DNA of 64,000 nucleotides from Vairimorpha necatrix (Eukaryota). Shown in pieces: positions 1-63,396 of the stretch. Position 1 is the first letter of the stretch. Every line of letters starts with the position of its first letter. The position numbers were made by a program, and so were the translations under genes. The stretch covers positions 1,054,001-1,118,000 of the forward strand of contig CP142726.1 in assembly GCA_036630325.1 (NCBI GenBank). Direction: 5' to 3'. The notes beneath the pieces are model-generated. The model ran no database searches, had not been told where the DNA came from, and saw only the letters and a list, made by a program, of their open reading frames with translations.

Positions 1-230
1 AGAACTCCGATTAAAACCTAAATTGATTCTATATACAAACAAGATTTCTTAAAAGGACTTTAAAAAGCCAAACTATGTCAGTCAGACATGGGCTTGATAC
101 TGATCAGGAAGGGGGTTTTGAGAGTTCACTGTGTGGATTTCAAAGGAAACCGGGAACCTTCGGAAAAGATCTTAAGCGTATCTTATGATAATTAAGTAGT
201 AAGTAAGATGCCATATTGTACTCAAATAAA
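1..230 (+). mobile_element. 3' fragment of RLE-type non-LTR retrotransposon (cut by window edge)
   Basis: Aligns by eye to 33730-33960 (gaactccgatta..., caaactatgtcagtcagacat, tgtggatttc...cgggaac), which lies downstream of an RLE endonuclease motif. Confidence 0.7.
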
Positions 231-1516
231 ATATTTTTTTTTATCCGGGCGTATGAACGAAATTTGTATAGCCTTTTGTATAAAAATATCGAAACCTGTT
301 TTAATTCTACATTTATTTCGTATCAATCAATATAAAAAATTTCCGTCGTTAATATTATCAAAAGAATAAAATTCTACATTTTTTTTAGTTGGAATAAAAT
401 TATCACTAGCCAAATAATTCCCTCATTGAACCTTGACATATTTGTCTATCATCAGAAAACCTAGAAATGCAATAAAGGTAAATTATGTTCTAAAATTTTT
501 TGCACACATGTCTTTATAATGCAAAACATACTTATTTGATTAAATTCCAGACAAATATGTGTAATTTTGACATGTTTATATGAATGTTATAAAAAATATG
601 TACTACTTTACCGGTTGAATACTGATTATAAATGTAAAAAAATAAAACATTTTGCAACAGACCATCGCATTTTTTTCAATCATAAAACTTAGGCATTATG
701 ACGACCTAACATGCCACCAGTAGTTAGAAATCTATTTTGTATTTATAAAAAGACTAAATAAAGCTACTTGTACCGGCTTGCTATAAATTAGATCTAGAAA
801 AAAAAAATACCCACAAAACAAATTTACTTTGATACGAAGAGTGAGTTAGAAATGAGATTTATGATTTAAAATAATAATGAATGACACCAAAATTTGTTTA
901 TAGTAAGTTATAGGTTGTACAGATATACTTTTGAACATGTTATAATTTTATTAATTCTTTTTTGAATGTATATGTATAAAAATATGAGATTTTTATGAAT
1001 CAAAAATAAGCTCAAGTCGGGAGAATAGATTGCGCCCTTGAAATATACTACATTATAGGTTTTAAAGTTATTATAAGGGCAAAAAAAGTTCAGATATAAT
1101 TTTTATTAAAATATATAAATTTGATGACCGCAAAAACTTTAATTGTTCCGTACAAATGCTAGAGTTCGTCTGATTATTGAATCTAGACCAGCCGGGTTCA
1201 TACGATTTCTTATCAAAATAATTTTACAAACAAGTCTCCCGCAACTTATACGACAATTAAATTCCAAAGAGTTGCTAACCCTTCTTCTGACTTATAGGCA
1301 TTTCTAACCAATCTAGCCTTCTAAGCTTAATTTTTGCTTCTTAAACTTTTGACTAGAAGGAGCTGAACTTTTGTTCCCTTTACATTGAATTCTAAGCTGT
1401 TAAGATCCATGTACATGCCCCATTTATAATTAATTATAACTGCACTTTACATAATGACAGGAAACACAAAACCGTCGACTTGAAAAATTGCAGTTTGTTT
1501 ATTTGTTGATAATTTA

Positions 1517-2362
1517 TCAATTATTGTACATTTCATTCAACTCTTCATAGATCTCTACAACAAATGATGATTTTATAGCCAAGTGAGTTAAAATACTATA
1601 TATTGAGTTTAGAATTGTTTCTACTTCAGTTTTTATGAAAAAATTTTCATATTTATACAGTATCAACTCGTTTATCATATTTTCCAAAGTTTCTATTATT
1701 GGAATATATTTAAATAGAGAAAATATTTCAATATTGTAATTGTGAATTTTAATTCTATGAGAATTTGGTAATTTATGTTTTGGAAAATTTGCCTTCATAT
1801 CGTAGACTTCAAGAAAAATTTGTAACGTCTTTATAAGTTCATAAATTATATTCTTAATTTCTATAGGAGCTTCGGATTTTATTATCATTTGTATAACATT
1901 TGGCAGTTTTCGTTTATTTATTTGAAACTTATTTTGCTTTTTTATTTCTCTAATTGCTCTGTAATATGCCACTGCACATTCATCGATCCTTGACGGTTTT
2001 ATAAGCTTTGATCTTTTTTTACAATTTGTAAATGATTTTAGTTCCATCACTAAGATAAAATGTTTTATTCTTACTTCACACGCAGCCAAATAATTTTTCA
2101 TCTTTTCAATCGGATATGAAGATTTTGTTGAATCAAATTCTAAAGAAGTGGTTTCTTTTGATTGTTCAAAATCCAAAACATTACAAGAGATTTTTTTTGA
2201 GACATTATTTTTTTTTAGTTCAACATTTGCCTTATAGTAAAATTCATATTGATATGGAAATTCCAATCTGTAATTGCTAATTCTGTTCTCGTATACTGTA
2301 ATATTGGTGCAATCATTTGTAATTAATTGCGCACAATAAATAAAATTAATCGTTACAATCAT
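1517..2362 (-). CDS. Lineage-specific multigene family protein (281 aa), possibly secreted
   Basis: Intact ORF, CCC just upstream of ATG, short hydrophobic N-terminus MIVTINFIYCA, family motif YNIEIFSLFKYIPIIETLE shared with four other loci. Confidence 0.85.
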   Translation of the reverse strand: MIVTINFIYCAQLITNDCTNITVYENRISNYRLEFPYQYEFYYKANVELKKNNVSKKISCNVLDFEQSKETTSLEFDSTKSSYPIEKMKNYLAACEVRIKHFILVMELKSFTNCKKRSKLIKPSRIDECAVAYYRAIREIKKQNKFQINKRKLPNVIQMIIKSEAPIEIKNIIYELIKTLQIFLEVYDMKANFPKHKLPNSHRIKIHNYNIEIFSLFKYIPIIETLENMINELILYKYENFFIKTEVETILNSIYSILTHLAIKSSFVVEIYEELNEMYNN

Positions 2363-3289
2363 TTTATGGGTGCAATTTACAATATTTTAAAAAAGCTGCC
2401 TGGGATAATTTTATTCGCGACTATATGTTGAAAAATAAAGCATTTAAAAAAAAGAAGTAAAAAATTGTAAATATGATAATTTTTATGACTTTTTGCTTAA
2501 AAATTTGAAAGCGTAAATATTTCTCCGTAATTATACCAATTTCATATATTTTATGGCGAAAAAAGTATTTTTCCCATAGATAAAAGAATTTACTTACAAG
2601 AAAAGTACATAATCAATTGTTCAAAATGAGCTGATTAATTAATTACGATTTTTATAAAAATTTTTTAAGTGTTTTTTAGAATAAATTCATTTTTTTGTTT
2701 AAATTTCAAAAATCTCTATAAATAGAAATTGAGTTTTTTTAACAAGTATGCTTTGTATTTAATATTTTTCTCATCTTTTAATTTATATAAAACTAATAAA
2801 TTTTTTTTAAAATAAATTTCAATTGATCGGGGTACCAAAATATCCTATACACTAATAAACTGTGATTTTTGATTTATATACTCAAGGGCATTCAGCATGA
2901 ATCATCTTTTTAAAAAACGTTGACAGCATAATAATTTATGTTGTTATTGTGCATGAGAATTTTAGTGAATTTAAAACCTTTTATTTTATTATCTACAAAA
3001 TTCTTCAAATTGTTTAGCTAAAGCAATATACTAGTTATAAATAAAAAAATGTATCACAAAAATGAAGTGGGTTATAGTTAAAACATTTGCTAATATTCAA
3101 AGGTAAATAATCATTATTTTATTCATTGAATAATAACTTTATTTTGTATTATTTTTAAATGAAGAATTAGCAAATTTTGTGAAATGAACTTAAATTCATT
3201 AAAAATTCCTACTAGCTTTAATTATAAACCTCCGACGTGGAAAAAATATCAATACTGACTATTATACTAATTTACTTATAAATATTTTA

Positions 3290-8626: not shown

Positions 8627-9917
8627 GGCGCTACTTAAAAATTTGCACCCCCTAAAAAAATACGTTCACTGAAAAAAAAATATTTGGTATAAAATGAGAT
8701 AAAATCAAATTTTAAAGGATTTTTTTCCGGGGGTGCGAATTTTTTGTAAAGGTATTTTGAACGTGAAATTTTTTTATTTTATCTATCCCTTATAATGAAC
8801 AGGATGATGGACGAAATGCTTCAATTCAATCCATCAATCCTATTTTCACTGATAATGACAGGGCAATCGACTACGGATTGAAGAACAACTTGTTCTATCC
8901 TTGTATTCCCCGTACTAATGATCAGTGCAAAGGAATTATGTTTATTCAAAACATATCTTTGTTTTCTTAAGGAAAGGGGTACAAATGTAGCAAAAAAATT
9001 TGTAAACGAAGATGTTCATAAAATAAAGGTTCTAAATTTAAATCTTTAGATATTGAATTTAAAAAAAATTCTTCGTTGCATTTATTGTTGGTGTTTGTCA
9101 TATACTAATTTTCAGGCTATCAACATGTGTGAAACTTCTGAACCAACATATATTTCTGTAAAAGAAATAATAATGGAAACAATTTCCAAGTCTTCTACTG
9201 TTGTTACAACGATAGGTGGAGTTGGTCAGAGGATAAAAATAGACGAAACAGCTATTTGTAATGGAATTATAAAATCGAATCCGTCTAGTCGATTGGATTC
9301 TGAACTTGGAATTCAGTGGATAATAGGAGGTGTATTGAAAGGAAATTGTAGAGAGTTTTTTGTGGAACTAATACCCGATAGAAAATGGGAAACGATTTTA
9401 CTAATATTAAAAAAATATGTAAAAGTAGGCGCGGATATAGTAACTGATGGTTATCCATCCTATCCACGTGCTATAGGTAAATTTGGTTCTCACCATAGTG
9501 TGGTAAATCACTCTATGGGATTTTGTAATGAAGAAGGACAAAATACAAATTATGTAGAAAATATGTGGTCGCATCTTAAGCATGATTATAGAAAGAGTGG
9601 AGGAATTAATAAAATAAGAATTAAATGTTGGTTAGATGAGTTCAAATAGCAAAAAAAATATAGAATATTCAAAACCATTTACAATCAAATTAGCCTTCGT
9701 AAAAATAATTGATATTTTTTCTATGTTAAAGTAATTAAATTTTTGAACTAAATAATATGTTATAACTGTTTTTTTAAATATTTAAACTTTTGTAAATTCA
9801 TATTTTCATAAAAATATTGTTTTAAATATAATTTTAAGGGTTAAAAATATTTTTTTTTATATAAATTAATTGGTCAATGTAATTTTTTTTAGGGGGTGCG
9901 AATTTTTAAGTAGCGCC
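8627..9917 (+). mobile_element. Merlin (IS1016/IS1595-like) DNA transposon, family A
   Basis: ~34-bp TIRs GGCGCTACTTAAAAATT(T/C)GCACCCCCTAAAAAAAA; perfect 8-bp TSD GATACTCC at 8619-8626 and 9918-9925; DDE transposase inside. Confidence 0.95.
8795..9649 (+). pseudogene. Disrupted Merlin DDE transposase
   Basis: CCC-preceded ATG at 8795, then stops/frameshifts; ORF 9053-9649 has IDET, VTDGYPSY, VNHS, NTNYVENMWS motifs. Confidence 0.85.
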
Positions 9918-12790
9918 GATACTCCAAAATTTTTTGCAATGAAAAAGTGAAATCCTCTCTTTATGATATGCGAATGGTACATTGAGTTCTTCATTCGATT
10001 TTATGTCGTTAAAATGAGCTGTTCCAAAAATTATTTTTTTAAGCATTATGATCTCGACATTGAAAATTATAAAAGCTTTTCAAATTTGTTCCTATATTTT
10101 ATATTTATAATTATAATTTAAGCCTCAGGAATTAAAGGCGTATTTTTTACCTATCAAAATAAGTAAACAAAAAATCCAAGATAAGAGCAAAATGATAATG
10201 TTTAAGATTAATTATAACGTTGCTAATGTTCGGGGATTTTAAAAGGCTGGCGAAATATTATATTAACATCATTATTAAGACAATTATCATAATGTATTGC
10301 TTTTTCACATATATATATATATATAAGCATGAATAACTCATTGAGAACGGCATAAATAATGGAATAGATTTTATATTAAATATATCTCGTTAAAATTTTC
10401 CCTTTAATATTAGTTATACGCGGTAGTAATTACCTTTCTCGAAAGATCAATCCTTCAGAAGCAACATATATTTTTTTTTGTTTTTTCTTATCATATTAGA
10501 CTATTTATTATATCGCCATCTGAAAGACTATTTTAATTTGAGTTTACTATATCATTGTGATTAGATTTGTGATACCTGTATATTATTTTTTATATTATAC
10601 CAATATAATACTTTTCTTGTAAATCACAAAAAAACAAGTTTGTTTTTAATATCGATACCAGTATATTTTTAACAGTTCTTAACTCTTTGTATAATTTTAA
10701 GATTCGCCTTTGGTTTCGATATGCTTTATTTTTATCATAAATATTCTTTTCTAATTTTATTTTTTTTCGCAAAGTCAAAGGAAATTAATGTTTTAAAAGA
10801 AATTTTATACATCTTTTAATGTCTTAAAATATATAAAAAAGTTGATACAATTATTATATATAACGATTTTCTTTGTATAGTTTTTTTTTAATTTTGGTTT
10901 ATAGTTTTATGGGGGTTCTTCCTGTTGCTGTATGTTCGCAACATTTTTCTTTTTTTTGAGGAATTTTTGAAAATTTTCTTTTATACTTATGCGGTCTATC
11001 CCATTAACTATACAACGTCGCGTTGGTGTATAATTACACTTAAAACAACGAAGTCGATAACGTATTAAATTTTATAATCTTCACATTATTCTTTTTTTTA
11101 GATAAGAAACTATATCATTATTTATTGTATATCTAAACGAACTATTTATAATTTTTATGTCTTATTTGAATCTTGATGAAAAATTTTATAATTTCCTTTT
11201 TATTATATTCAATATCATTTGTACTTTAATTTGAATAAACTTATTTTTTTAGTCATATAAAATAAGCTCTTTATCATTTTTTCCACTTTTATTATTGATA
11301 AATATAGTTTAAAGGCAAAATTGTTCTAAATTTGTAGTTATATATATATTAATTTTGTTTGTGTTTGATTTGTCATGTGCTGATAAGTTTCATTGTAAAT
11401 CATAACCTTAATAGAAGAAAAATTCATAGTTTATAAATTTTATAATTTTGTCTTTAATTTCTGTACAATCATTTGGATATTCTACTTTCTATATTTTATG
11501 AAGTTGTATGTAAGTTAAAATATGCAAATCATTTTCCTTATATTTTTTATCTGTCTAGTAAATATTTTTATATGATCGTCGTCTATTACATTATGTCTGT
11601 CTGTTATCGTCGTTTAACTTTGTGCATTGAATTTCGGTCCCATTATCAATTTAAGGTGTTTATAATGTTTTCATATGTAGATAAATACTTTTATTTACAT
11701 TCATTTAATTTTGTCCAATTGTGAATTATATTTAAACGCAGAGATCTGTGAGGGTGTTCCCGTTTTTTACAACATTTTATGGTAATTGTTTGAAAACCAT
11801 TTTGTTTTTCTGTCTTTTTGTATTAAAACTGAAAGCTTTCATGTGAAAAAAATAGAAAGTAATTATTATTTTTAAAATCATATACGTCGTCACTTTCCTT
11901 TTCATTTTTTTTTGCTGTGACCACAAAAATAGTCGTATAAATTATTACAAGACAAAAAGATATTTATTACATGGGATTATGCTATATTTTAATTAGTTTC
12001 TAGATGAAATAGAAGAAAACTAGATATCAGTTCTTAAGGTTCTAGTAAAAAATACATAAGTTATCGATTTTTTAGCCAGCTGGAACCAGCAAATCAAAAC
12101 AAAAAAAAATATGACTTATTTTAGCAGTATTGCATTTAATATTCATTCATATCAAGATTTTAAATATTTCTTTAAAAAAAACCATTATTTTTATAACGTT
12201 CTATCTTTGACATATTAAGAGTAAAATGGCCATCGTGGAAGTTAAAAACAATTAATATAAACTATGTTAATTAACACAAAAAGATCAAAGATTATATATA
12301 AGAGTTTTATATTGCGTTATGTACACGCAACAACAATAATTTTAAGTAACAACCATGTTAACAAAATTTACAATATAATCGCAGACAATATTGTAATAAG
12401 CAGAAGGCGGACAACGGAATGTCCCTACAATCACATCTAGATATTATATTAACCATTTTGTATATGGTGTACACATAAGTGCATTTTAGTTAAGACAAAA
12501 GGGAAGCAGAAAAACTTTTTGGATTAAATGTGGACCAGATACACAAACATAAAAAAAATAGAACTCCTACAATAGACATAAATTTGGCTAATACCTTTAA
12601 TACTATTATTTTTGAAGATACGTTCTTATAGATTTTTTTAGTATTATAAATTTTTTGTCTAAAGTTTTGGCATTTAATTTTATTTTGTTTAATAGACGGT
12701 ATTTAGTGAAAAATTCAGCATTAAGGTTTGATATTCATTATGGGTCAAAGTGCATCAATTCGTAGTTTTTTTATTTTTGATCATATAAAA

Positions 12791-12839
12791 TGTGATATAT
12801 TTGTATAATTTCTATCCCCCATTATTATAAATAAAGACA
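12791..12839 (+). repeat. 5' LTR (49 bp)
   Basis: TGTGATATATTTGTATAATTTCTATCCCCCATTATTATAAATAAAGACA; direct repeat of 15960-16008. Confidence 0.92.
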
Positions 12840-13102
12840 TGGGGGCGATACCGAATCGTCAGTTTACAAGTGTGGACTGTGGTCTAAAGGCCAAAAAGTT
12901 ATTAAAGGAAGTCAGAAGAATAATGTATAGGTTGGAGATGGAGGAATTAGAAATCAGTTTGTGGAAGCAGAGAATATTTATGGAAGGAAGTGAAGAAATA
13001 AAAAATTTTATGGTAGAAAGAATTAGTAAAGAGGACGAATATTATAAAATAATTGAGAAATTAGAGGAGGAAATATGTAGAGAAGAAAGAACTAAAAAAT
13101 AA
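12839..13102 (+). CDS. Gag N-terminal ORF of the Gypsy element (87 aa)
   Basis: ATG overlaps the LTR end and PBS; CCCCC ~19 nt upstream; a -1 shift in the A-run at 13094-13099 would join it to the long ORF. Confidence 0.65.
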   Translation: MGAIPNRQFTSVDCGLKAKKLLKEVRRIMYRLEMEELEISLWKQRIFMEGSEEIKNFMVERISKEDEYYKIIEKLEEEICREERTKK

Positions 13103-13125
13103 GAAGAAAAAATAGGAGCGAACTT

Positions 13126-15597
13126 ATGGAGGGCATAGCTGAGAATGTTAGAGAAACTGTGAGAAAAGAAATTCAAGAGAAAGATTTAGTTTTAAGGAGT
13201 ACAGTACAAGAAATAAGAAATAATAGGAATTGTTTTAATTGTGGTAAATTTGGCCATATGGCTAGGAACTGCTATGTAGGAAGGAACAATAATCAGGAAA
13301 ATAATAAAAAGTTTAATAAGTACTTAAATTTAGACGAAAACCAAAGTTGTAGTAGCAGTAATGATAATAAAGAATATAAACCAAGTGGAAAGACAAAACG
13401 AGTTAAGTTAAAGGAATGTAATAATAGTGATAGAAGACATAAAGAAAGAATATATGCGAGCAATAAAGAGACGAAAAGAAGATTACTGAAGAGGGAATTT
13501 ACGTTGGAAGATCTCAAAGCGGAATATGAAGAAGTTTTTAAACAAGGAGATGAGGTTATAAGTTATTGTACATTAGAAAAGTGTAAGATAGATACTCCAG
13601 AGGGTAAGAAGATAGTCAGAAAGGGACAGACGATCCCACAGGCTTTGATCAAACAGACTGAGGAATATATTAATGATTTAGAAAATAGAAAAATTATAAG
13701 AAGATCGTCTTCGGAATGGCGAAACCCAATAAGAGCGATACTTAAACCAAGTGGTGAAGTAAGAATAGTTAGTAATTTTATAGGATTGAATGATTTAGTC
13801 GAGAAAGACCCGTATGAGCTAACGAATATGAGAGAAATAATAAGAGCTACGCAAGGGTCGATAATATTTACCGTTGTTGATTGCAAAGAAGCATTTTACC
13901 ATTTTGAAATCGAAGAAAAAGATAAACATAAGACGGCGTTTGAATTTAATAAAAAAGTTTACGAATGGAATAGTATGGTGATGGGATACAAAAATTCCCC
14001 ACAGATACTACAGAGAACGATGAATATGATTTTTGAAGATTTGCGAGGAAATGGTGTTGAGGTATACATGGACGATATAGTAATACATGCCAACAATAAA
14101 CGTAAACACGATGAATTAGTAATAGAGGTTTTAGAAAGAATTAAGAGAAATAAAATGAAATTAAATATTGGGAAAATACAGTTTAGACAAGCGGAAGTAA
14201 AATTATTAGGTGTGACGCTGAATGGAATAGACATGACGGCCGACGAAATAAAGAAAAATGTCGCCTTGGAGTATCCGGATCCAAAAACTTTGACGGAATT
14301 GAGGAGGTTTCTAGGATTGACTGGATGGTTCAGACCATTTATAAAAGATTATGCCGGGCTGACGTTGAAAATGACAGATAGTTTGAAGAAAAATGGCAAT
14401 TCGTGGAAATTTACGGAAGAGATGAAAGAGGAATTTACTAAAATGAAAAATGTGTTAAGAAATATGGGAAGACTAAGATTACCGGACTATAATAAGGAGT
14501 TCATACTAAGAACAGACGCTAGCAATTTGAGATTGGGTGCGGTGTTACTTCAGAAGAATGAGAATGGGGAATGTGTTGCTATACAATGGGCATTTAAAAA
14601 GCTAACACCTACCGAAATAAGATATGGAATATCAGAAAAGGAAATGCTTGCGATATATTGGGGCATTGATAAATTTAAATACGAGTTAAGAGGTAGGAAA
14701 TTCAAGATAGAAACGGATCACAAAGCACTGGTGGAGATAAGAAATAAACCGTTTTTCAATAATAACAGAATAAATCGTTTAATCGAGAAGATACAGGAAT
14801 ATGATTTTATCGTTGAATATAAAAAACCTGATGAGATGGTGGTAGCAGATGCGTTGAGTCGAATAAATATGGAAGAGGATATTAAAGAAATGAAAAATAA
14901 AGAGCGAACAATCAAGCAAACAGAAGGTAAATGGAAAGCACATGTTTCTTCCGAGAATGGAAAGCAATATTGGCAATTTGACTCAGGACGTAAAGTTGAA
15001 ATACCACCTGAGAATATAAGGAGACAATTAATCCAAGAATATCATGAAAAAGTAGGCCACAGATGCATGACAAGTGTTTATTATGCAATGAGAGAAGAAT
15101 ACTATTGGCCAGGAGTAAAGAAAGAAATGAACGAGGTTATAAAACAGTGTCAGAAATGTCAGATATATAACAGGAAAAATATGGGTGGTTGTGAATTTGT
15201 AGATACGTCGAGATATTTAGAGAAGGTTGCATTAGATTTGATAGACTTTAGAAATGAAAAGAAATATGTTTTAGTTGCTATCGATTATTTTACACGTAGA
15301 GTATGGGGAGTAGTTATAAATAACAAGTCAAGTAATAATGTTGTTGGATTTTTGAAAAGATTATGTGAGCAAGGGAAGAAACCAGAAGAAATTATTACAG
15401 ATAACGGGAAAGACTTTATTAACTTGGAATTTAGAAAATTTTGTAGAGATCTCGATATAATACACCGACAAGTAAGTATAGAAGCGCATAGAAGTAACGG
15501 AAGAGTAGAGCGTGTTTTAGATACTCAGAGAGAAAATATTATAAAGTCGGATGCGGAAACTTTTGAAGGTAAAAAGTATAAAAGTATCGATATATAA
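13126..15597 (+). CDS. Gag zinc knuckle - RT - RNase H - integrase polyprotein; C-terminus frameshifted and continuing to ~15937
   Basis: CFNCGKFGHMARNC knuckle; YMDD; TDAS, EKEMLA, TDHKAL; HHCC zinc finger; ALD..., TDNG, SNGRVER; YNQNYHTGIKCTP continues in another frame (15551-15763). Confidence 0.93.
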   Translation: MEGIAENVRETVRKEIQEKDLVLRSTVQEIRNNRNCFNCGKFGHMARNCYVGRNNNQENNKKFNKYLNLDENQSCSSSNDNKEYKPSGKTKRVKLKECNNSDRRHKERIYASNKETKRRLLKREFTLEDLKAEYEEVFKQGDEVISYCTLEKCKIDTPEGKKIVRKGQTIPQALIKQTEEYINDLENRKIIRRSSSEWRNPIRAILKPSGEVRIVSNFIGLNDLVEKDPYELTNMREIIRATQGSIIFTVVDCKEAFYHFEIEEKDKHKTAFEFNKKVYEWNSMVMGYKNSPQILQRTMNMIFEDLRGNGVEVYMDDIVIHANNKRKHDELVIEVLERIKRNKMKLNIGKIQFRQAEVKLLGVTLNGIDMTADEIKKNVALEYPDPKTLTELRRFLGLTGWFRPFIKDYAGLTLKMTDSLKKNGNSWKFTEEMKEEFTKMKNVLRNMGRLRLPDYNKEFILRTDASNLRLGAVLLQKNENGECVAIQWAFKKLTPTEIRYGISEKEMLAIYWGIDKFKYELRGRKFKIETDHKALVEIRNKPFFNNNRINRLIEKIQEYDFIVEYKKPDEMVVADALSRINMEEDIKEMKNKERTIKQTEGKWKAHVSSENGKQYWQFDSGRKVEIPPENIRRQLIQEYHEKVGHRCMTSVYYAMREEYYWPGVKKEMNEVIKQCQKCQIYNRKNMGGCEFVDTSRYLEKVALDLIDFRNEKKYVLVAIDYFTRRVWGVVINNKSSNNVVGFLKRLCEQGKKPEEIITDNGKDFINLEFRKFCRDLDIIHRQVSIEAHRSNGRVERVLDTQRENIIKSDAETFEGKKYKSIDI

Positions 15598-15959
15598 TCA
15601 GAACTATCATACAGGAATAAAATGTACACCAATAGAAGCGACTGAAGATAAAACTGGAGACGTAATGCTTGAAAATAGCCCTATAGGGAAATATTGTAAT
15701 AGGTTTGGAAAAGGAAAGATCGAAAAATGTAGTAAAGGTCAATTGGTAAGAATAGCTAAATGAGAAAATTTGGCAGGTGTTAATAAGTATGAAAAAGGAA
15801 GATTTTTGGATACAGGAAAAATTGTTGAAAAGTGTGGAAAAGATTCTTATATTGTAAAACTTAGTAATGGTAGGCTTGTGAAGAAGAGACATTATGATCT
15901 GAAGGGTATGCTTGGGGTAGATGTGAAAATTAGATGAGACTAACCGTCTTGAGGGGGGA

Positions 15960-16008
15960 TGTGATATATTTGTATAATTTTTATCCCCCATTATGATAAA
16001 TAAAGACA
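15960..16008 (+). repeat. 3' LTR (49 bp)
   Basis: Follows the PPT directly; ends CA then TSD TAAAA. Confidence 0.92.
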
Positions 16009-16069
16009 TAAAATATAAATTAAATATAAATTTTACGTTTTTTTACGAATCCCCCCCAATCAAAATGTT

Positions 16070-16959: not shown

Positions 16960-17811
16960 TTATTTATACAAGTACAGCTGCTTTAACTTTTCATAATTTT
17001 CTATTGCGTGTTCTGATCTTGTTTTTAATTTACGTAATTTAGTTTCTAATAAAATTAAAATTTCATTTACTACATACCTAAAGCAAAATTTTTCGTAGGC
17101 ATACAGCCTCAATTCAGTTTTCATTTTTTCCAAAGTTTTTATTATTGGTATATTGTTAAATATAGAAAATAATTCTACATTGTAATTAATGATTTTTATT
17201 CTATAATTGTTTGATGAAGTAACGGTTAAAAATCTTCTTTTCATTTTGTAAATTGAGATAAAATTGTCAAAAAGATTTAAAAATTTGAAAATTATGTTTT
17301 CAATTTCTATAGGGACATTCACAGACTTTATTTTTTGTTCAATAATGGGCAATTGTTTCATCTTCAAATCATATATGTTATCCATTGTTTTTTCTATATT
17401 TTTTATACAAAGACATTTATATTTTTCATTTGTTTTCACAATATTAGATTTTTTTAAAGTTTTATCTTTTTTTAGATTTCGTTTACGTTTCATCTCATTC
17501 TCAAACTTTTTCATTTTATGTTTACAATCAGATATATATTTTTCGATTACATTTATTAAACTTGATAAAGTTTGTGAATTATTTTCTGATGTAAAGTTTT
17601 CTTTGGACTGTTCCATGTTTATATCATCACAGTTATGTTGTTTTAATTCTCGAATGCTTTCTTCCAATTCATCATATGGTCTATATTGAAAGTTTTCATG
17701 AAAAGAAATTACAGATATGTATTTTATATCTCTATTTCCATATGCTCTTCTTATTATGCATTCATTTGTAGTGAAATGAGCGCATGAAATAAATTTTAGT
17801 ATATTAATCAT
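16960..17811 (-). CDS. Lineage-specific multigene family protein (283 aa)
   Basis: MINILKFISCA N-terminus, YRPYDELE and YNVELFSIFNNIPIIKTLE motifs, CCC upstream. Confidence 0.88.
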   Translation of the reverse strand: MINILKFISCAHFTTNECIIRRAYGNRDIKYISVISFHENFQYRPYDELEESIRELKQHNCDDINMEQSKENFTSENNSQTLSSLINVIEKYISDCKHKMKKFENEMKRKRNLKKDKTLKKSNIVKTNEKYKCLCIKNIEKTMDNIYDLKMKQLPIIEQKIKSVNVPIEIENIIFKFLNLFDNFISIYKMKRRFLTVTSSNNYRIKIINYNVELFSIFNNIPIIKTLEKMKTELRLYAYEKFCFRYVVNEILILLETKLRKLKTRSEHAIENYEKLKQLYLYK

Positions 17812-21878: not shown

Positions 21879-22712
21879 TTATTGTAAAAAATCCGATCTA
21901 AGTTTCAAAAGACGTACAACTTCGTCTGATTTTATTAATAATATATCTAACTTAGCCTTTAATGAATCAAAAATTTTTATAATTTCCCACCAGATGTTTA
22001 TATTTGTGTATTCATATAATTCTAATTTCTTTTTCATTATTTCTAAAGTTTCTATTAATGGGATATGCTTGAATAGGGAAAATATTTCAATATTGTAATT
22101 GCAAATTTTTATTCTATATTCATTTGATGAATGTGGTATTAATATTTCCTTTTCCATATTATAAATTAATAAAAAAGAATATATAAGATTTATAAATTCT
22201 AAAAGCAAGTTCTTGATTTCAATAGGTCCATTTAAAGCCCCTATTTCAACTGTAATTTGAGGCAATTGTTCATTTCTTAAATCATATATAATTTTTATTG
22301 TTTCTTCAGTATTATTTTTGTATCGATTTAAAACATATTCATCTGGCTTTTCAATGTTTATATCTGTTTCATTTAACTGCGATGACCACGTTTTCATCTT
22401 ATTTTCGTACTCTTCTATTTTTTTTCTACATTCTAATATATATTTTTCAATATCTATACTCAAATATGGGAGCGATACTGAAATATATTCACATGTAGAA
22501 ATTTCTTGTGGCACTTCCTTCACTATTTCATACCATAACGGTTGGTTTATATCTTCAACATCCTTTTCCAATTCAAAATATGGTTTATACTTTTTTTCTT
22601 TATTGGATATAATCGATATGTATTTAATATCTTCATTCCCATAATAACTTCTAATTATACTTTCATCTGTATTAAAATGAGCACAATTAATAAAATTCAG
22701 TGTTAATATCAT
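21879..22712 (-). CDS. Lineage-specific multigene family protein (277 aa)
   Basis: MILTLNFINCA, YKPYFELE, YNIEIFSLFKHIPLIETLE; CCCC upstream. Confidence 0.88.
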   Translation of the reverse strand: MILTLNFINCAHFNTDESIIRSYYGNEDIKYISIISNKEKKYKPYFELEKDVEDINQPLWYEIVKEVPQEISTCEYISVSLPYLSIDIEKYILECRKKIEEYENKMKTWSSQLNETDINIEKPDEYVLNRYKNNTEETIKIIYDLRNEQLPQITVEIGALNGPIEIKNLLLEFINLIYSFLLIYNMEKEILIPHSSNEYRIKICNYNIEIFSLFKHIPLIETLEIMKKKLELYEYTNINIWWEIIKIFDSLKAKLDILLIKSDEVVRLLKLRSDFLQ

Positions 22713-23328: not shown

Positions 23329-24073
23329 TATTAAAGACTATAAATTAAGGGTCAAATTTATTGATATATATCTTCAACATCCCCGCGTTAAATTTAGAAT
23401 TGAGTGATGTAATTATCTTTGCAACTTCCTACGCCACTACTTGGCTTTCAAAATAAAAGTAAATTTTTTTAAGTTAATTGGCCATGGGCTGCGTTTTACT
23501 CTTTCGCGTCTTACTATCCCTTCTTGTATTGGTCTTTACGGCACTTCTTTCCCTGTTAAAATACTCAAAATCTATGAGAATGTGGACTTTCTTTACACAT
23601 GTCTTCCCAACAATGGAACCGGATTATTTTTGCCTATCTCACTTTTCAACGACAACACAGTTTTTTTTAATTATTTCTCTTTTAAAATCTCTCTGGATTT
23701 TTGAACACTAGAAATTCAGCTATCTTGCTACGATGGTTTAAATGTTAATGGTGAAATGTACCACTTCATACATCTGCACATCTCTTATGCTAGATCTTAT
23801 TACAGTCAATACTGTTTCTTAATAGCTCTTCAATGGACCTCCACATCTTCACCTATCCGGGCCCTCGACTAGTGCAATCCATCATCTTCTCTTCTGTTAG
23901 ACAACCAACCATCCCCATTCTAACCTATACAGCAATTTTTTTACGTCTCATGCCTCGACGGAACTTACAACCTCTTCTTTTTGTTTTTTGTTTAGGTTCA
24001 AAAATTTAATTCTCCACCATGTTAATGATAATTGTAAGTTAAGGGATAAATTTATTTATATATATCTTCAACA
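23329..24073 (-). mobile_element. Non-autonomous (TRIM-like or internally deleted) LTR element, 745 bp, with 51/54-bp LTRs
   Basis: LTRs 24020-24073 and 23329-23379 both start TGTTGAAGATATATAT on minus; TSD CTTTT at 23324-23328 and 24074-24078; PBS TGGTGGAGAAT; PPT GCGGGGA; gag remnant DVKKLLYRLEW. Confidence 0.82.
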
Positions 24074-26223: not shown

Positions 26224-27042
26224 TTAACTTTTAGTATTTTTTATAACTTCTTCTGATTTTATTGATAATATGGTTAATATATTTTTTAATGATTTAAAAA
26301 GTGCATTTACTGTATAGTGAGTGTCGACGTCCGTGTATACATAACCTTCTAATTTATTTTCCATTTTTTTCAAGGTTTCTATTATTGGTATATGCTTAAA
26401 TGCAGAAAAAATTTCTATTTTGTATTTATGGATATTTATTTCTTTCTCGTTTGATGAATTAGTGGATACTGTTGCTCTTTTTATATCAAAAATAGATAAA
26501 AATGAATAACAAAGATTCATAAATTTTATAAATACGTTTTTAATTTCATCAGATTCCAATGAATTCTCTATAGATTTAGTGATTTCGATCAAATGTTTAT
26601 TTCTTGCAGTATAAAAAAGTATCAATATATCTCGTATACTATATTCGTATTGATTTTCACAATAATCAACAAATTTCTCAATATTTGAATCAGTTTGTTT
26701 TATTGGCTCTATTCCTGTTTCCATATTATTTTTATACTCTTCTATTTTCTTTTTACATCCGATTATATCTTCTTCAATATCAATAAGCAGATCGGCAAAA
26801 TAAATCAAGTTACTTTCCATTGTGGATGTTCCGTGTGTTGGTTCTGCTTCCTTTTCGTACCATGGTCGGAGATTTATCTTTTTAGTACTTTTTTCCAATT
26901 CATCATATGGTCTAAATCCCAATTCATCTTGATCAGATACTACTGATATGTATCTCACATCTTTATTTCCGTAAAAATTTCTTATTATATTTTCATTTGT
27001 AATGTAATCGGCACAATAAATTAAATAAAATGTCAATATCAT
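26224..27042 (-). CDS. Lineage-specific multigene family protein (272 aa)
   Basis: MILTFYLIYCA, FRPYDELE, YKIEIFSAFKHIPIIETLK; CCC upstream. Confidence 0.88.
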   Translation of the reverse strand: MILTFYLIYCADYITNENIIRNFYGNKDVRYISVVSDQDELGFRPYDELEKSTKKINLRPWYEKEAEPTHGTSTMESNLIYFADLLIDIEEDIIGCKKKIEEYKNNMETGIEPIKQTDSNIEKFVDYCENQYEYSIRDILILFYTARNKHLIEITKSIENSLESDEIKNVFIKFMNLCYSFLSIFDIKRATVSTNSSNEKEINIHKYKIEIFSAFKHIPIIETLKKMENKLEGYVYTDVDTHYTVNALFKSLKNILTILSIKSEEVIKNTKS

Positions 27043-28036: not shown

Positions 28037-28899
28037 TTAGAATGAATTTTTTAAAATATCATATATTTGATTTAACTTTTCATAATTTTTTATAACTTTT
28101 TCTGATTCTATTGCTAAAAGATCTAATGTAGCTTTTAATGAATCTAAGGTTTTCATTATGTTCAATATAATGTTTTTGTCATTATATTTATATGATTCTA
28201 TTTTATTTGTCATTTTTTCTAGAGTTTCTATTATTGGTATATGCTTAAATAGCGAAAATATTTCAATATTGTAATCATTGAGTAACATTTTATATCCGTT
28301 TGACTGATTTAGAGTTGATCACCTTTTGTTCATATTATAAATCGATAGAAAAGAACAAAAAAGATCCATAAATGCTTCGAAAATGTTCTTTATTACTTCA
28401 AGCTCCCTCAGAGCATCTATATTTCCCATAATTACCGGCAATGTTCCTTTTTTAAATCATATATTTTTTGAATTTTTTTGTGTGTATCTTCTTCTGTACA
28501 ATTTATACAAAATTCCTCTATTGTTTTAGATTTTTTAATTTTTAAATTTTCTTTCTTTATCATCTTTGATTTCATTTTCAGTATATCTTTGTATTCTTTT
28601 ATTATCCTTTTACAATAAAAGATATCTTTTTTAATAAGAAAAATTGGATTCGATGAAGATTTTGATTTATGTTCTACTGTAGAATTTGCTTGTTGTGGTT
28701 CTACTTCCATTTCGATACATGTCAGTTGATTTAATATTTCGAAACTATTTTCCAATTCATCATATGGCCTAAATTCAGATTTATCATGTGAAGAAATTAT
28801 GAATTTGTATCTTATATCTCTATTTCCATGAACCCTTCTTGTTATGTGTTCATCCGTGTTGTAATGAGCACAAAAGATAAATTTTAGTATTAAAATCAT
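28037..28899 (-). pseudogene. Frameshifted member of the same family
   Basis: N-half 28432-28899 (FRPYDELE) and C-part 28037-28288 (YNIEIFSLFKHIPIIETLE) separated by frameshifts near 28440 and 28315. Confidence 0.85.
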
Positions 28900-29018: not shown

Positions 29019-30038
29019 GGCTAAAGTTAGCTTTAGCTGACAAAAATGCATATTGGGTTTTTTTTCTTTTTTTTGCCCCTTTTTAAAAAAATGGAGGAGA
29101 CAATATGACCAGAGCAGAAATGGAAACAGTCTATAATATTTTATTTGACAAAAAAAAGAATCAGTTATGCAAAGTGTGTAATGGTAGAATGAGGTTGCTT
29201 AGTAAACAGGGCCCTATGTTAAAATGTACTTGGAAGGACTGTAAGAAGACAGTTTCTATGTGGAAAGGTACATTCTTTAAAAACTTGAGACTTGATCATA
29301 TCAAAATTTTACAGGTACTTAATTTGTGGATTCTAGGCTATCCTCGTAAGTATATTAGCCAAATTTTATGTTGTTCAAAACCTTCAATATCGTTTATTTT
29401 TAAAAAATTAAAGGAAATAGACATTTATGATAAATATTTATCATCTTTGGGAAAGATAGGCGGGGAAGATATTATAGTAGAAATAGATGAAACAAAAATA
29501 GGAAAAAATAAGTATAATAGAGGTAAACTAGTGAAAGGGTTTTGGTGTTTTGGAATGATAGAGCGTTCTTTAAAACGAACTATAATAATTACTTATATTA
29601 AAAAAAGAGATACAAAAACACTTACAGACCTTTTATTAAAATATGTGAGCACGGAAAGCACTATATACAGCGATATGTGGAGGGCTTGCCGTTCCTTGGG
29701 TAATGATTTCAAACAACAAACATGGTCAACCATTCATTACACTTTCGAGATCCTAATACTGGGGTTCATACCAATGCCATAGAAGGTAATTGGAGATCAC
29801 TCAAAAATTCTATACCTAATCGAAATAGGTCTGCAAATGGTGCCAAACTTTATTTGTTTAGGTATATGCTTCGAAGAAATGCATCTAATTCTGTTTTTGA
29901 TGCATTATTAAATTTATTGTTCTAATTTTTGTTTTTGTTCCTTCCTTAACATTTTCCTTCTTCCATTTTTTTAAAAAGGGGCAAAAAAAAGAAAAAAAAC
30001 CCAATATGCATTTTTGTCAGCTAAAGCTAACTTTAGCC
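29019..30038 (+). mobile_element. Merlin DNA transposon, family B, copy 1
   Basis: ~78-bp TIRs starting GGCTAAAGTTAGCTTTAGCTGACAAAAATGC; 8-bp TSD AAAAATCG at 29011-29018 and 30039-30046. Confidence 0.95.
29105..29925 (+). pseudogene. Merlin transposase with a frameshift near 29720
   Basis: N-terminal Cys motifs, VEIDETKIGKNKYNRG, IYSDMWRA, then VNHS...GVHTNAIEGNW in a second frame. Confidence 0.9.
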
Positions 30039-56568: not shown

Positions 56569-58128
56569 TCATATATATAAAAGAATTTTATTTAATTTTT
56601 TACCCCTCTTTTTTATGAATTTGTAAACTTTAAACTCCTTATTACAGCTCATTGTGTCATCGTAATATCAAATATAAACTCAATGAAGGATTTTGACTAT
56701 CATATGTGCGTGTACTGTACGTTAATACATTTTGATTTTAATTCTTTGTTTTGTAAAACTCAGTTCCAAAATATTGTCAGAATCGTTTTTTAGAATTTAT
56801 TTGACCCTTCCACGAAAAATTGCAAAAACAATTAACTAATAAAGATTTTGAATATAAGTGTCAAAATTTGAGCTTAGAAGTTCCCAAAATTATCTCATTA
56901 TAATTATTAAATAAATGTTTTATGATAAAGTTTACTCCTTATATGTTACTAAAAAGTATTTTCCAAAATCATGTTTTCTCCTTTTCAAATTCATTCATCA
57001 AAAAATGGAAATTCACAAAAAGATAAAGGAGGTACATATTATAAAACAAACATTTAGATCCCGTTTTTAAAACGGGAAAGCATACGCTAGTCATATATAT
57101 AAAAGAATTTTATTTAATTTTTTACCCCTCTTTTTTATGATTTTGTAAAATCCAAACTTCTTATTAAAGCTTATTGTATCATTGTAATATCAAATATAAA
57201 CTCAATGAAGGATTTTGACTATCATAAGTGCGTAAGTTGTATGTTAATACATTTGTATTTTGATTCATATTTTTGTAAAACTCAGTTTCAAAATATCGTC
57301 AGAAGCGTTTTTTAGAATTTATTTAACCCTTCTAGGAAAAATTGCAAAAATAATTAACAATAAAGATTTTAAATATAAGCGTCAAAATTTGAGCTTAAAA
57401 GTTCCCAAAATTATCTTATTGAGATAATTAATTGTTTATAAACAACATTACTCCTTATATGTCACTAAAAAGTATTTTTAAAAATTATGTTTTCTCCTTA
57501 TTAAATTCATTCATCCCAAAATGGAAACTTTACAAAATTCACCGAGGAGCGACATATTAAAAAACTAAACATTTAGATCCCGTTTTCAAAACGGGAAAGC
57601 ATACGCTAGTCATCATATATATAAAAGAATTTTATTTAATTTTTTACCCCTCTTTTTTATGATTTTGTAAAATCCAAACTTCTTATTAAAGCTTATTGTA
57701 TCATTGTAATATCAAATATAAACTCAATGAAGGATTTTGACTATCATAAGTGCGTAAGTTGTATGTTAATACATTTGTATTTTGATTCATATTTTTGTAA
57801 AACTCAGTTTCAAAATATCGTCAGAAGCGTTTTTTAGAATTTATTTAACCCTTCTAGGAAAAATTGCAAAAATAATTAACAATAAAGATTTTAAATATAA
57901 GCGTCAAAATTTGAGCTTAAAAGTTCACAAAATTATCTCATTATAATTATTAAATGTTTTTAGCTCAACTTTACTCCTTATATGTTACTAAAAAGTATTT
58001 TCCAAAATCATGTTTCCTCCTTTTCAAATTCATCCCAAAATGGAAACTTAATAACATTAAAAGGGGAAATACATATTAAAAAACTAAACATTTCGTTCCC
58101 GTTTTCAAAACGGGAAAGCATACGCTAG
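56569..58128 (+). mobile_element. Three head-to-tail non-autonomous Helitrons (~520 bp each)
   Basis: Units 56569-57090, 57091-57609, 57610-58128; each begins TC and ends with hairpin CCCGTTTT(T/C)AAAACGGG plus AAAGCATACGCTAG; array lies between A and T, no TSD. Confidence 0.9.
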
Positions 58129-58619
58129 TTTTTTATATTTTAACTTAAAATGAAAAAATTGCTCCAATTTTACGGCAAATTACACCACTTAAAATTTTTT
58201 ATGTTAATTACAAACTTTATAATCATTTTGTTTATTAAAAATATATGCTACATTATCATCCAAAATTCATGACAAGTATTATGTCAGCTTAAGAAACAAT
58301 GTAATATAAATATTAGCTGTATCTGGGCGACATTAGTTAAGCGAACAACATTTGACTCGTATTTTTAGTTGTTCCTATGATTTCCAAATATTTTGTGCAC
58401 TTCGTTATAAAAGTGACTTCAACTTTAGATTATTGTATTATTTGACGTGGAATAGATAAGGTTCTAATTGTAATACAAAAAAAAGTTGAATTCTACACAT
58501 TGCAGCCTTTAATAATATACTTAAATTTCTGTAACAATTTTTATTATTTTCTATTTAAAAAATTGTTAGTTTGTAATACAGATAAATGATTATGTTTAAT
58601 TAAATCAAATACCTTAAAT

Positions 58620-60588: not shown

Positions 60589-61955
60589 GGTTTATTGATA
60601 AAAATTTTTAATTATAAATTCAAGAAAAAAGTTTTAGTAAAAGATTTGGTGTTTTCATTATAAATTTGTAGGAAGTGTAGCACATGTCAAATCCGGCAGT
60701 GTCCATTATTAGATATTTGACATGTGTTTTTTTAAGAATATTTTTTAAATAAATAAACCTATGTTGTCATTTCAACAAAATTATCATTTAGATACTAATA
60801 ATAAATGTATATAAACTACTTTACAGGCGTGTGTGTGTGCAACATAGGAAAATGTAAAAATCATGTAACATTTTAGCCAACTAATTGCCTATGTTAGACG
60901 TTATAATAGCCTTAGTTATAAAACATCGTATATTATTACATAAAATCGTTTTTTATACCCTTCCTGTTGTAATGATGATTTATTAAATATGATAGATATT
61001 AATTTAAATAAACATTGTTTGTATATCTTATATTTCTATTATATAGTATGCAAAAATTATATAAAAAATTTTAATTTCAATTAACTAATTAATGCTTTTT
61101 AATGTTTTAAACGTTCTGGGCTAAGTAATGTGAAAACTTAGTAATCATTAATCATACTCGTCCACGGCGTGGTTTTTTATGATTAGAATCTACAAAAAAC
61201 GATATGTTAGAGAATTTAGTATTATTTCGAAATATGTATAATTAAAGTATGTTATGAACCTATTTTATGTCGCTACTCTGATTTCTAAAAATTTCTTTTA
61301 CCAATAAATTTCCTTTTGCAGCTATTAACAATATCAAAAAAACGTAAGAAACTTGAGCTGCCCCATTCCTACGATTTTTTTTAGTTTTATTATGAGGCCA
61401 AAGATATTGTAGTAAGTTTTCATAGTATCTAAAGAATATTACGGCAACTTTATATATCGAACCTTTTTGAGATTTTTTTCATTCCATTAAATAACTAAAT
61501 TAAAAATTAGAAAACGATTTTTAAAAATTATTCTTAGATTAAAGAAATAATTTATAAATTATTTCTGTATCATACTAACAAAAAAAATTTTGAAAATATT
61601 CAAAGATTTTATAAAAAATCTAAACCTTTAATATAAATAATTAATAACAATTTATATGTTTTTTAACAAGCGTAAAAATAAATTTGTTTAAAATATTTAG
61701 TCAATTCCATATGTAGCAATAAAAGCTATTGAACACGTGATTATAAACAGCAACAACAATATTAAATCAAAAAAAGAACATCGTCGAGATTTGGAAATTA
61801 TTAGTTTGATATCTAAAATAAAAGATTTAAATCTGCAATGATAGTTTTTATTAAATATAAACAAGTTCACATTGAAAGAGCTTTAACAAATTACTACTGA
61901 GGCTCACCGTTATTTAAATTAATTAACACGACTTTATAATTTATGCTAATCCATT

Positions 61956-62969
61956 GGCTAAAGTTAGCTTTAGCTAACAAAAATGCATATAGGGTTTTTT
62001 TTCTTTTTTTTGCCCCTTTTTTAAAAAAATGGAGGAGACAATTATGACTAGAGCAGAAATGGAAACAGTCTATAATATTTTATTTGACAAAAAAAGAAAC
62101 AGTTATCCAAAGTGTGTAACGGTAGAATGAGGTTGCTTAGTAAACAGGTCACTATCTTAAAATGTACTTGGAAGAACTGAAAGAAGACATTTCAATGTGG
62201 AAAGGCACATTCTTTGAACTTTAGACTCGATCATATCACAATTTTGCAGATACTTAATTTGTGGCTTCTAGGATATCCTCGTTAGTATATTAGCCAAATT
62301 TTATGTTGTTCAAAACCTTCAAAATCGTTTAATTTAAAAAAGCTAAAGCAAATAGACATTTATGATAAATATTTATCATCTTTGGACAAGATGGGCGGGG
62401 AAAATATTATATTAGAAATAGATGAAACTAAAATTGGAAAAATAAGTATAATAGAAGTAAACTAGTGAAAGGGTTTTGGTGTTTTGGAATGATAGAGCGT
62501 TTTTTAAAACGAACTATAATAATTACGTATATTAAAAAAAGAGATAAAAAAGCACTTACTGACCTTTTATTTAAATATGTGAGCACGGAAAGTACTATAT
62601 ACAGCGATATGTGGAAGGCTTACCGTTCCTTGGGTAATGATTTCGAGCAACATCACATGGTCAACCACTCATTACACTTTCGAGATCCTAATACTATGGT
62701 TCATACCAATACCATAGAAGGTAATTGAGATCACTCAAAAATTCTATACCTAACCGAAATAGGTCTGCAAATAGTGCCAAATTTTATTTATTAGGTATAC
62801 TTCGAAGAAATGCATCTAATTCTGTTTTTGATGCATTTTAAATTTATTGTTCTGATTTTTGTTTTTGTTCCTTCCTCATCGTTTTCTCTCCTCCATTTTT
62901 TAAAAAAAGGGGCAAAAAAAAGAAAAAAAACCCTATATGCATTTTTGTTAGCTAAAGCTAACTTTAGCC
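61956..62969 (+). mobile_element. Merlin DNA transposon, family B, copy 2 (transposase with several stops and frameshifts)
   Basis: Same TIR as 29019-30038; 8-bp TSD AATCCATT at 61948-61955 and 62970-62977; collinear with copy 1. Confidence 0.95.
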
Positions 62970-63396
62970 AATCCATTGTTAAAAAATATATGAATGATAT
63001 GTTTTTGCATATTGTCATAACATTAAATGCTTTTTTGTATATATAAGACACTGACAAAAAATTATATTAAAAAATCCATACGGCTAATCCAAACATTTTC
63101 TTAGTGTAATATAAAAAATCGGAAGTTGATCAAGAGCAACAAAACATAATATCACTTTACAAGTAGTAATAGTTTCATTTCTGAATAAATAAAACGCAAT
63201 TTAAATCTTATATCTTACATGTTTTGTTTTATTGCAATGTAAGAAAAGAGGTTCGTACATCTAATTTTCATATAATTCATTGATTTGTCAACTTTTTAGG
63301 TAATTTAATGTTCTGATGTATGAGTATAAAATGTGCAGTAAAAAAATGAAAAAAATATGATTGCTACGTTTATAGCTCTAATAAATATACACAGAA

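Follow-up and report, generated by a model that had tools for sequence, protein, structure and literature searches.

A compact, decayed microsporidian Ty3/gypsy-type retrotransposon with a coding primer-binding site and a probable gag-pol start codon inside its LTR

The element at 12791-16008 of the window (the whole 64-kb stretch of DNA analysed here) is best explained as the decayed remains of a compact Ty3/gypsy-type retrotransposon of microsporidia with a single gag-pol ORF, and this explanation, including a translation start within the LTR, is as a whole quite probable. Comparison of family copies indicates that translation most likely starts at an in-LTR ATG located 3 nt after a CCCCC run, with the ATG at the junction of the LTR and the primer-binding site (PBS), which the earlier note had taken for the gag start, forming codon 6. 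The layout is already tabulated for Anncaliia algerae and has a precedent in Ty1; what is gained is a mechanistic reading and not a new kind of element. The window is AT-rich and contains intron-poor eukaryotic genes (MCM, Rad51-type, Sec23/24 and RPN11, as recovered by Pfam), most with a CCC just before the ATG, and the host genome assembly (G000) comprises 15.0 Mb in 12 contigs. From these genes, and from the microsporidian origin of the nearest named relatives of the element's protein, we take the host to be a microsporidian.

Table 1. Coordinates of the retrotransposon, its parts and a second LTR element in the window
Feature	Position	Strand	Remarks
Ty3/gypsy-type LTR element	12791-16008	+	3,218 bp
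TAAAA, 5' target-site duplication	12786..12790	+	second copy at 16009-16013
5' LTR, 49 bp, TG...CA	12791..12839	+	two differences from the 3' LTR; terminal CA at 12838-12839
CCCCC, motif of the microsporidian core-promoter type; presumed end of U3	12816..12820	+	sequence, host spacing, PMC2803860 and PMC2685015
Site of the family's in-LTR start codon	12824..12826	+	ATT here, ATG in the 3' LTR (15993-15995)
AATAAA, poly(A)-type hexamer within the first codons of the family ORF	12830..12835	+	putative function
Junction ATG: last base of the LTR and first two of the PBS	12839..12841	+	codon 6 of the family ORF; first ATG of this copy
PBS, 14 nt complementary to tRNA-Pro(AGG), protein-coding	12840..12853	+	tRNA match, frame
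87-codon frame, N-terminal piece of gag	12839..13102	+	terminated by a frameshift near 13107
Remaining gag-pol: zinc knuckle, RT, RNase H, integrase	13096..15597	+	Pfam; a second frameshift near 15590 ends the frame
Polypurine tract (PPT)	15949..15959	+	sequence
3' LTR, 49 bp, in-LTR ATG retained	15960..16008	+	direct repeat of the 5' LTR
TAAAA, 3' target-site duplication	16009..16013	+	copy of 12786..12790
Second element: non-autonomous LTR element, 745 bp	23329..24073	-	54/51-bp LTRs, target-site duplication AAAAG, tRNA-Ala(AGC) PBS, PPT

The Pfam positions along the frame at 13096-15597 give the order RT, RNase H and integrase, which is the gypsy order, and a tRNA-matching PBS after the 5' LTR and a PPT before the 3' LTR are likewise canonical features of Ty3/gypsy elements (Metaviridae). 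The TG...CA LTRs with their target-site duplication, the one gag-pol polyprotein of the family copies and the microsporidian nearest relatives are, in turn, those of the microsporidian Ty3/gypsy elements with one polyprotein reported by Parisot et al. 2014 (PMC4202319). Canonical Ty3/gypsy elements also have an aspartic protease between gag and RT, and in this feature the Pro-primed clade departs from the canonical form. Its gag is very small, with the zinc knuckle at about residue 135 (window frame 13096-15597; L122, L161 and L226; homologues P0001-P0048), and no protease is detectable: the D[ST]G motif is absent from 3 of 3 Pro-primed subfamilies versus present in 17 of 18 other representatives, occurs in only 2 of 38 close homologues of the clade, and a Pfam protease match at an E-value of 0.1 is missing in 2 of 2 Pro-primed sequences versus present in 9 of 9 others. 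In the predicted structure the region from zinc knuckle to RT is disordered and then helical. The clade, which works like a Ty3/gypsy element, is filed with the microsporidian single-ORF elements. A TATA-box argument for the 49-bp LTR was dropped, as this LTR contains no exact TATA[AT]A[AT] match.

A search of the host genome for the family yielded 143 candidates, of which 40 were scored and 30 copies fetched. Full-length copies possess one gag-pol ORF of 1,037 aa, and in sibling copies the junction ATG shares its frame with the zinc knuckle and the YMDD motif, so that the in-frame relation to gag proposed in the earlier note holds across the family; the frames of these copies also bear out its proposals that there is no internal untranslated leader and that the PBS lies in the gag-pol frame. 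The window copy differs from one full-length sibling by 57 substitutions and by frameshifting indels near 13107 and 15590. The 87-aa gag ORF that had been read from the junction ATG thus exists as an open frame, but is not gag itself: it is a decay product, cut from the approximately 1,037-aa gag-pol ORF by the first frameshift, and it is the ATT at the upstream codon together with the two frameshifts that makes the junction ATG seem to start an 87-aa gag.

The identity of the primers was examined using 63 tRNA calls in the host genome, 50 of them distinct. With zero spacer after the LTR, the PBS of the 12791-16008 element matches the 3' end of tRNA-Pro(AGG) over 14 nt (runner-up tRNA, 8 nt), while that of the second element matches tRNA-Ala(AGC) over 11 nt (runner-up again 8 nt), which agrees with the Pro-like and Ala-like primers anticipated for the two. 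Counting both strands, the window has 352 ATGG sites, and just two of them, the PBSs of these elements, show a tRNA match of at least 11 nt; no tRNA genes were found within the window. The 14-bp duplex with the tRNA-Pro primer has a predicted energy of -31 kcal/mol. Among the tRNA calls, a 104-nt intron-containing gene (L119, G000:C1:1431953-1432096) is labelled Leu(aag) by ARAGORN, although its body is Ile-like and the label may be wrong.

All parts of the junction geometry described in the earlier note, namely the CCCCC run and the ATG formed by the last A of the LTR and the first TG of the PBS, are present in the window copy. However, the interpretation of this ATG as the start codon of the family is not supported by the other copies or by the element's own 3' LTR. 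An in-frame ATG situated inside the LTR, 15 nt upstream of the junction ATG and 3 nt after the C run, is present in 23 of the 30 copies, including all 15 with an open frame up to the zinc knuckle and all 8 in which it extends to YMDD. It is missing in seven copies, none of which is open to the zinc knuckle, and in two of these, the window copy and L012, the codon is ATT; the site corresponding to this ATT in the 3' LTR of the window element reads ATG. Contigs of the sequencing run X1, which may be the source sample, cover the family, with no row at 12826 that would distinguish an ATT variant from an assembly error. Two other Pro-primed subfamilies have the in-LTR ATG at the same position, and the three subfamilies that keep it are 62-75% identical to L122 in their RT-RNase H region. 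The junction ATG comes first only in damaged copies of the family, the window copy included.

The spacing of the CCC motif in host genes is also informative in this regard. In 86 host ORFs (at least 200 aa, with first-ATG starts; the set may include some transposon ORFs) the gap between CCC and ATG is 0-10 nt in 48, 11-15 nt in 6, 16-22 nt in 1 and longer in 1, with no CCC in the remaining 30, and such a gap of 0-10 nt is found at 12 of 489 internal ATGs. A stricter ORF set has gaps of at most 11 nt in 32 of 56 cases and a single one at 19 nt. In published data, N. ceranae and E. cuniculi show an enrichment of CCC between -10 and -3 (PMC2685015), and 5' UTRs are shorter than 7 nt (PMC2803860). 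Taken together, these make the 3-nt gap between CCCCC and the in-LTR site host-like and the 18-nt gap to the junction ATG not so, and the proposal that CCCCC lies about 19 nt before the junction ATG as in host genes had to be given up.

That the junction ATG is nevertheless the main start, with the in-LTR ATG bypassed or lying upstream of the RNA 5' end and an annealed tRNA hiding two of the three start bases, is an unlikely alternative in light of these data. It could draw on the presence of the junction ATG in 26 of the 30 copies and on the G at +4, which is one of the two favoured bases at this position in E. cuniculi (PMC2803860). Yet the A is the fixed LTR end and the TGG the fixed PBS start, dictated by the CCA of the tRNA, so that A/TGG is forced and the junction ATG is maintained in the family in any case; moreover, an 18-nt gap is rare in host genes, and the upstream ATG is conserved across the three subfamilies as well as in an element of A. 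algerae (see below). As both ATGs are in frame, the second may still be used through leaky scanning past the cap-proximal AUG.

Further evidence comes from the other LTR families of the genome. An RT search gave 835 candidates, of which 150 were scored, and 89 loci, most of them picked for long open frames, were examined for LTR pairs. Entry into the family table required an RT-bearing frame of 150 aa, an LTR pair and a PBS match of 9 nt; L180, L191, L192, L197, L225, L234 and L235 were among the loci left out. The 21 hand-picked representatives that were compared possess distinct LTRs of 48-350 bp and Pro, Ala, Ser or Leu primers; they form about three related groups and hence do not amount to 21 independent tests. 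An in-frame ATG within the LTR, open across the PBS into pol, is found in 20 of the 21, and in 17 of the 21 it has a CCC or GGG within 11 nt (L207, L213 and L219 have none). Dinucleotide-shuffled LTRs contain an open in-LTR ATG in 10-31% of cases, and one that also has CCC or GGG within 11 nt in 0.5-11.5%. Twelve of the 21 have the junction codon in frame, as an ATG in 11 of them, which would be compatible with a junction start; in the other 9 it is out of frame, making a start there impossible. Outside the table, inspection of L191 by eye showed CCC followed by an in-LTR ATG, together with a Ser-type PBS that matches imperfectly.

Among the representatives, the eight with LTRs of 48-87 bp have a C run whose end lies 29-39 nt past the LTR start and 19-50 nt before the LTR end, and in 13 short LTRs the run is always at least 16 nt from the LTR end. 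This suggests that the 19-21 nt remarked upon in the earlier note would reflect the R region and integrase end required behind the promoter rather than the distance from CCC to ATG in host genes. A case for the junction start is offered by a 57-bp-LTR Ala-primed family (L233), in which 9 of 9 copies have no ATG from the CCC to the end of the LTR, so that the junction ATG is the first; in L233 itself it lies 20 nt from the CCC. In a related subfamily of 8 copies, an in-frame ATG precedes the junction ATG by 6 nt. Hence, the arrangement envisaged in the earlier note, with the junction ATG coming first, probably exists in this genome in the L233 family, and not in that of the 12791-16008 element.

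A third possibility is that neither ATG is used, with transcription coming from further upstream or from flanking DNA, translation starting at Met 34 and an ordinary leader that includes the PBS. Microsporidia commonly show read-through transcription (PMC2803860), and a predicted structure (33 sequences, mean pLDDT 79.8) has residues 1-19 unstructured, followed by three short helices and one long helix N-terminal of the zinc knuckle, which is itself present. However, the first helix begins at residue 18, ahead of Met 34, the similarity of N-terminal peptides among homologues holds from the junction onward, and the frequency of open in-frame ATGs in the LTRs is far above that in the shuffles. 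Additionally, 13 of 13 short-LTR representatives lack an out-of-frame ATG between the motif and the LTR end, with the motif itself being defined from the in-frame ATG. We therefore consider a start at Met 34 very improbable. Under the favoured in-LTR start, the unstructured residues 1-19 of the model fit a tail that would be free to carry nucleic-acid signals.

The named close protein relatives of the family come from Nosema, Vairimorpha, Enteropsectra and Pseudoloma, together with one row from a Clostridium MAG that looks mislabelled, and scores drop sharply between microsporidia and other eukaryotes. An N-terminus of the form M-x(1-8)-[N/D/H/Y]-M-[A/G/V/E/D] is seen in 19 of the 48 closest homologues versus 0 of 72 distant ones; two of the 19 are similar enough to originate, possibly, from this genome or a near one. 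These counts are as would be expected if the pattern M-x(1-8)-[N/D/H/Y]-M were the trace of an upstream ATG followed by an AC-A/TGG junction. The rest of the 48 comprise 10 with a junction-like Met, 15 that start otherwise and 4 without Met. Junction starts thus appear viable, judging from the L233 family and these 10 homologues. With gag residues 1-170 alone as query, 0 of 725 candidates were scored, and a metagenome scan gave 7 loci, comprising 4 short matches, which were left out, and 3 long ones, in which neither an LTR pair nor a 5' junction was seen.

The closest known layout is that of 'Aalg retro L' from Anncaliia algerae, with an LTR of 50 bp, an ORF at 32-3049 and a total length of 3,127 bp (PMC4202319). 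Here CCC directly precedes an in-LTR ATG at position 32, which is followed by five codons and then by a junction ATG at AC-A/TGG, and the ORF is annotated from the upstream ATG (PMC4202319). The two elements share the single polyprotein, the tiny LTR, the in-LTR ATG behind CCC and the second in-frame ATG at the junction; the 12791-16008 element differs in its tRNA-Pro(AGG) primer, its LTR of 49 bp and its CCC gap of 3 nt, and the likeness drawn here is one of layout. By our own count of Table S1 of that study, the ORF start is smaller than the LTR length in 43 of 50 complete A. algerae elements, and its main text describes one polyprotein but contains no match to 'PBS' or 'primer' (PMC4202319). 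A literature search, covering mainly titles and the openings of abstracts, and full texts of open-access papers only, found no discussion of a layout combining a coding PBS with an in-LTR start. Nbr elements were reportedly the subject of a study by Xu et al. in 2006.

The LTR of Ty1 from Saccharomyces cerevisiae is about 330 bp long. In this element the PBS lies inside the GAG ORF, and one pool of RNA serves translation and packaging, which compete for it (PMC4974528). Its primer is tRNAiMet, the PBS occupies RNA nucleotides 94-104 behind a structured 5' UTR, and GAG and POL are joined by a +1 frameshift (PMC4974528); the presence of another in-frame AUG further downstream has also been mentioned (PMC9283973). 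The PBS within the gag reading frame is a likeness in working only, given that Ty1 belongs to a different superfamily (Ty1/copia) with a different domain order, whereas here the PBS forms codons 6-10 behind a leader that we infer to be at most 3 nt.

The above observations provide some clues regarding a potential mechanism. Microsporidian mRNAs start a few bases before the AUG, right behind CCC, and the LTR appears to mirror this arrangement: U3 would be a promoter of about 30 bp that terminates in CCCCC, and the following 19 bp would serve at the same time as R, as codons 1-5, as the AATAAA signal and as the integrase end. Transcription would then begin 0-3 nt ahead of the in-LTR ATG, R would correspond to roughly the last 16-19 nt of the LTR with AATAAA as the putative poly(A) signal, and U5 would be near zero. 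From the ATG 3 nt behind CCCCC the ribosome would read on across the end of the LTR and then the tRNA-Pro PBS before reaching gag-pol proper. As the annealed tRNA-Pro would cover codons 6-10, primed RNA might not be translatable there, and an elongating ribosome would, conversely, be expected to displace the primer. By analogy with Ty1, each RNA might therefore be either translated or primed, with priming and translation potentially competing for the same bases, as the earlier note had supposed.

If so, this would be an LTR element adapted to the near-leaderless mRNAs of its host, with promoter, start codon, poly(A) signal and integrase end in 49 bp and with a coding PBS. Should the RNA ends agree, it would define a natural lower bound on the repeat length for strand transfer and offer a simple system in which to study how one RNA is committed to translation or to priming. 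It also accounts for the mis-calling of starts when damaged copies are annotated. A more far-reaching interpretation, which we entertain with considerable doubt, is that such retroelements are near-minimal: the tRNA primer would switch translation off, an R of about 16-19 nt would double as the coding start and minus strong-stop DNA would be shorter than 20 nt. In the 57-bp-LTR Ala-primed family, and through leaky scanning in the Pro-primed one, the start codon would comprise the last base of the LTR and two tRNA-pairing bases, such that annealing blocks initiation, and the polyprotein of the Pro-primed clade would be unprocessed or processed in trans.

The second element of the window had been held to have the same geometry. 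A CA/TG junction is indeed present, but its ATG opens only 4 codons, and the family is non-coding: it has 96 candidates in the genome, is abundant with LTRs of about 55 bp, and in 29 located of 30 fetched copies (L061-L090) the junction ATG opens 2-54 codons (median 17), with no long ORF found. This element was consequently rejected as support for a translated junction. We take it to be akin to the TRIM-type non-autonomous LTR elements, which it resembles in its length of 745 bp, small LTRs, PBS, PPT, target-site duplication and the absence of a coding frame, while differing from them in the LTRs of about 55 bp. Ala-primed families with a similar LTR layout exist in the genome. In L087 an LTR end of the 49-bp family lies inside the 5' LTR of the second-element family.

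Several other LTR elements of the genome possess distinctive features of their own. L234 and L235 (G000:C12:629600-636100 and G000:C3:214500-221000) have LTRs of about 226 bp whose ends are not TG...CA; the ORF starts 98 nt into the LTR behind a G run, and the 12 nt after the LTR match no tRNA and form a perfect palindrome. In the long-LTR families (L181-L186, L188, L199-L202, L207-L210 and L219) the gag-pol stop lies 41-110 nt inside the 3' LTR, and their ORF thus overlaps both LTRs. Young, near-identical copies with LTRs ending in TA or AA rather than CA also occur (L226-L230, L220-L221 and L249-L256), and the final A is always retained.

The window additionally contains other repeats. IS1595/Merlin-type DNA transposons occur at 29019-30038, 61935-62990 and 9125-9649, comprising two copies of about 1 kb with terminal inverted repeats of 89-107 bp and a third fragment of the transposase. 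The stretch 56569-58129 consists of a unit of about 520 bp repeated three times in tandem, with 300 bp of identity between two of the repeats. A dispersed family of genes of about 280 aa, all on the minus strand (1517-2362, 16960-17811, 21879-22712, 26224-27042 and 28037-28899), is 60-80% alike at the DNA level, with no Pfam match in the two members scanned.
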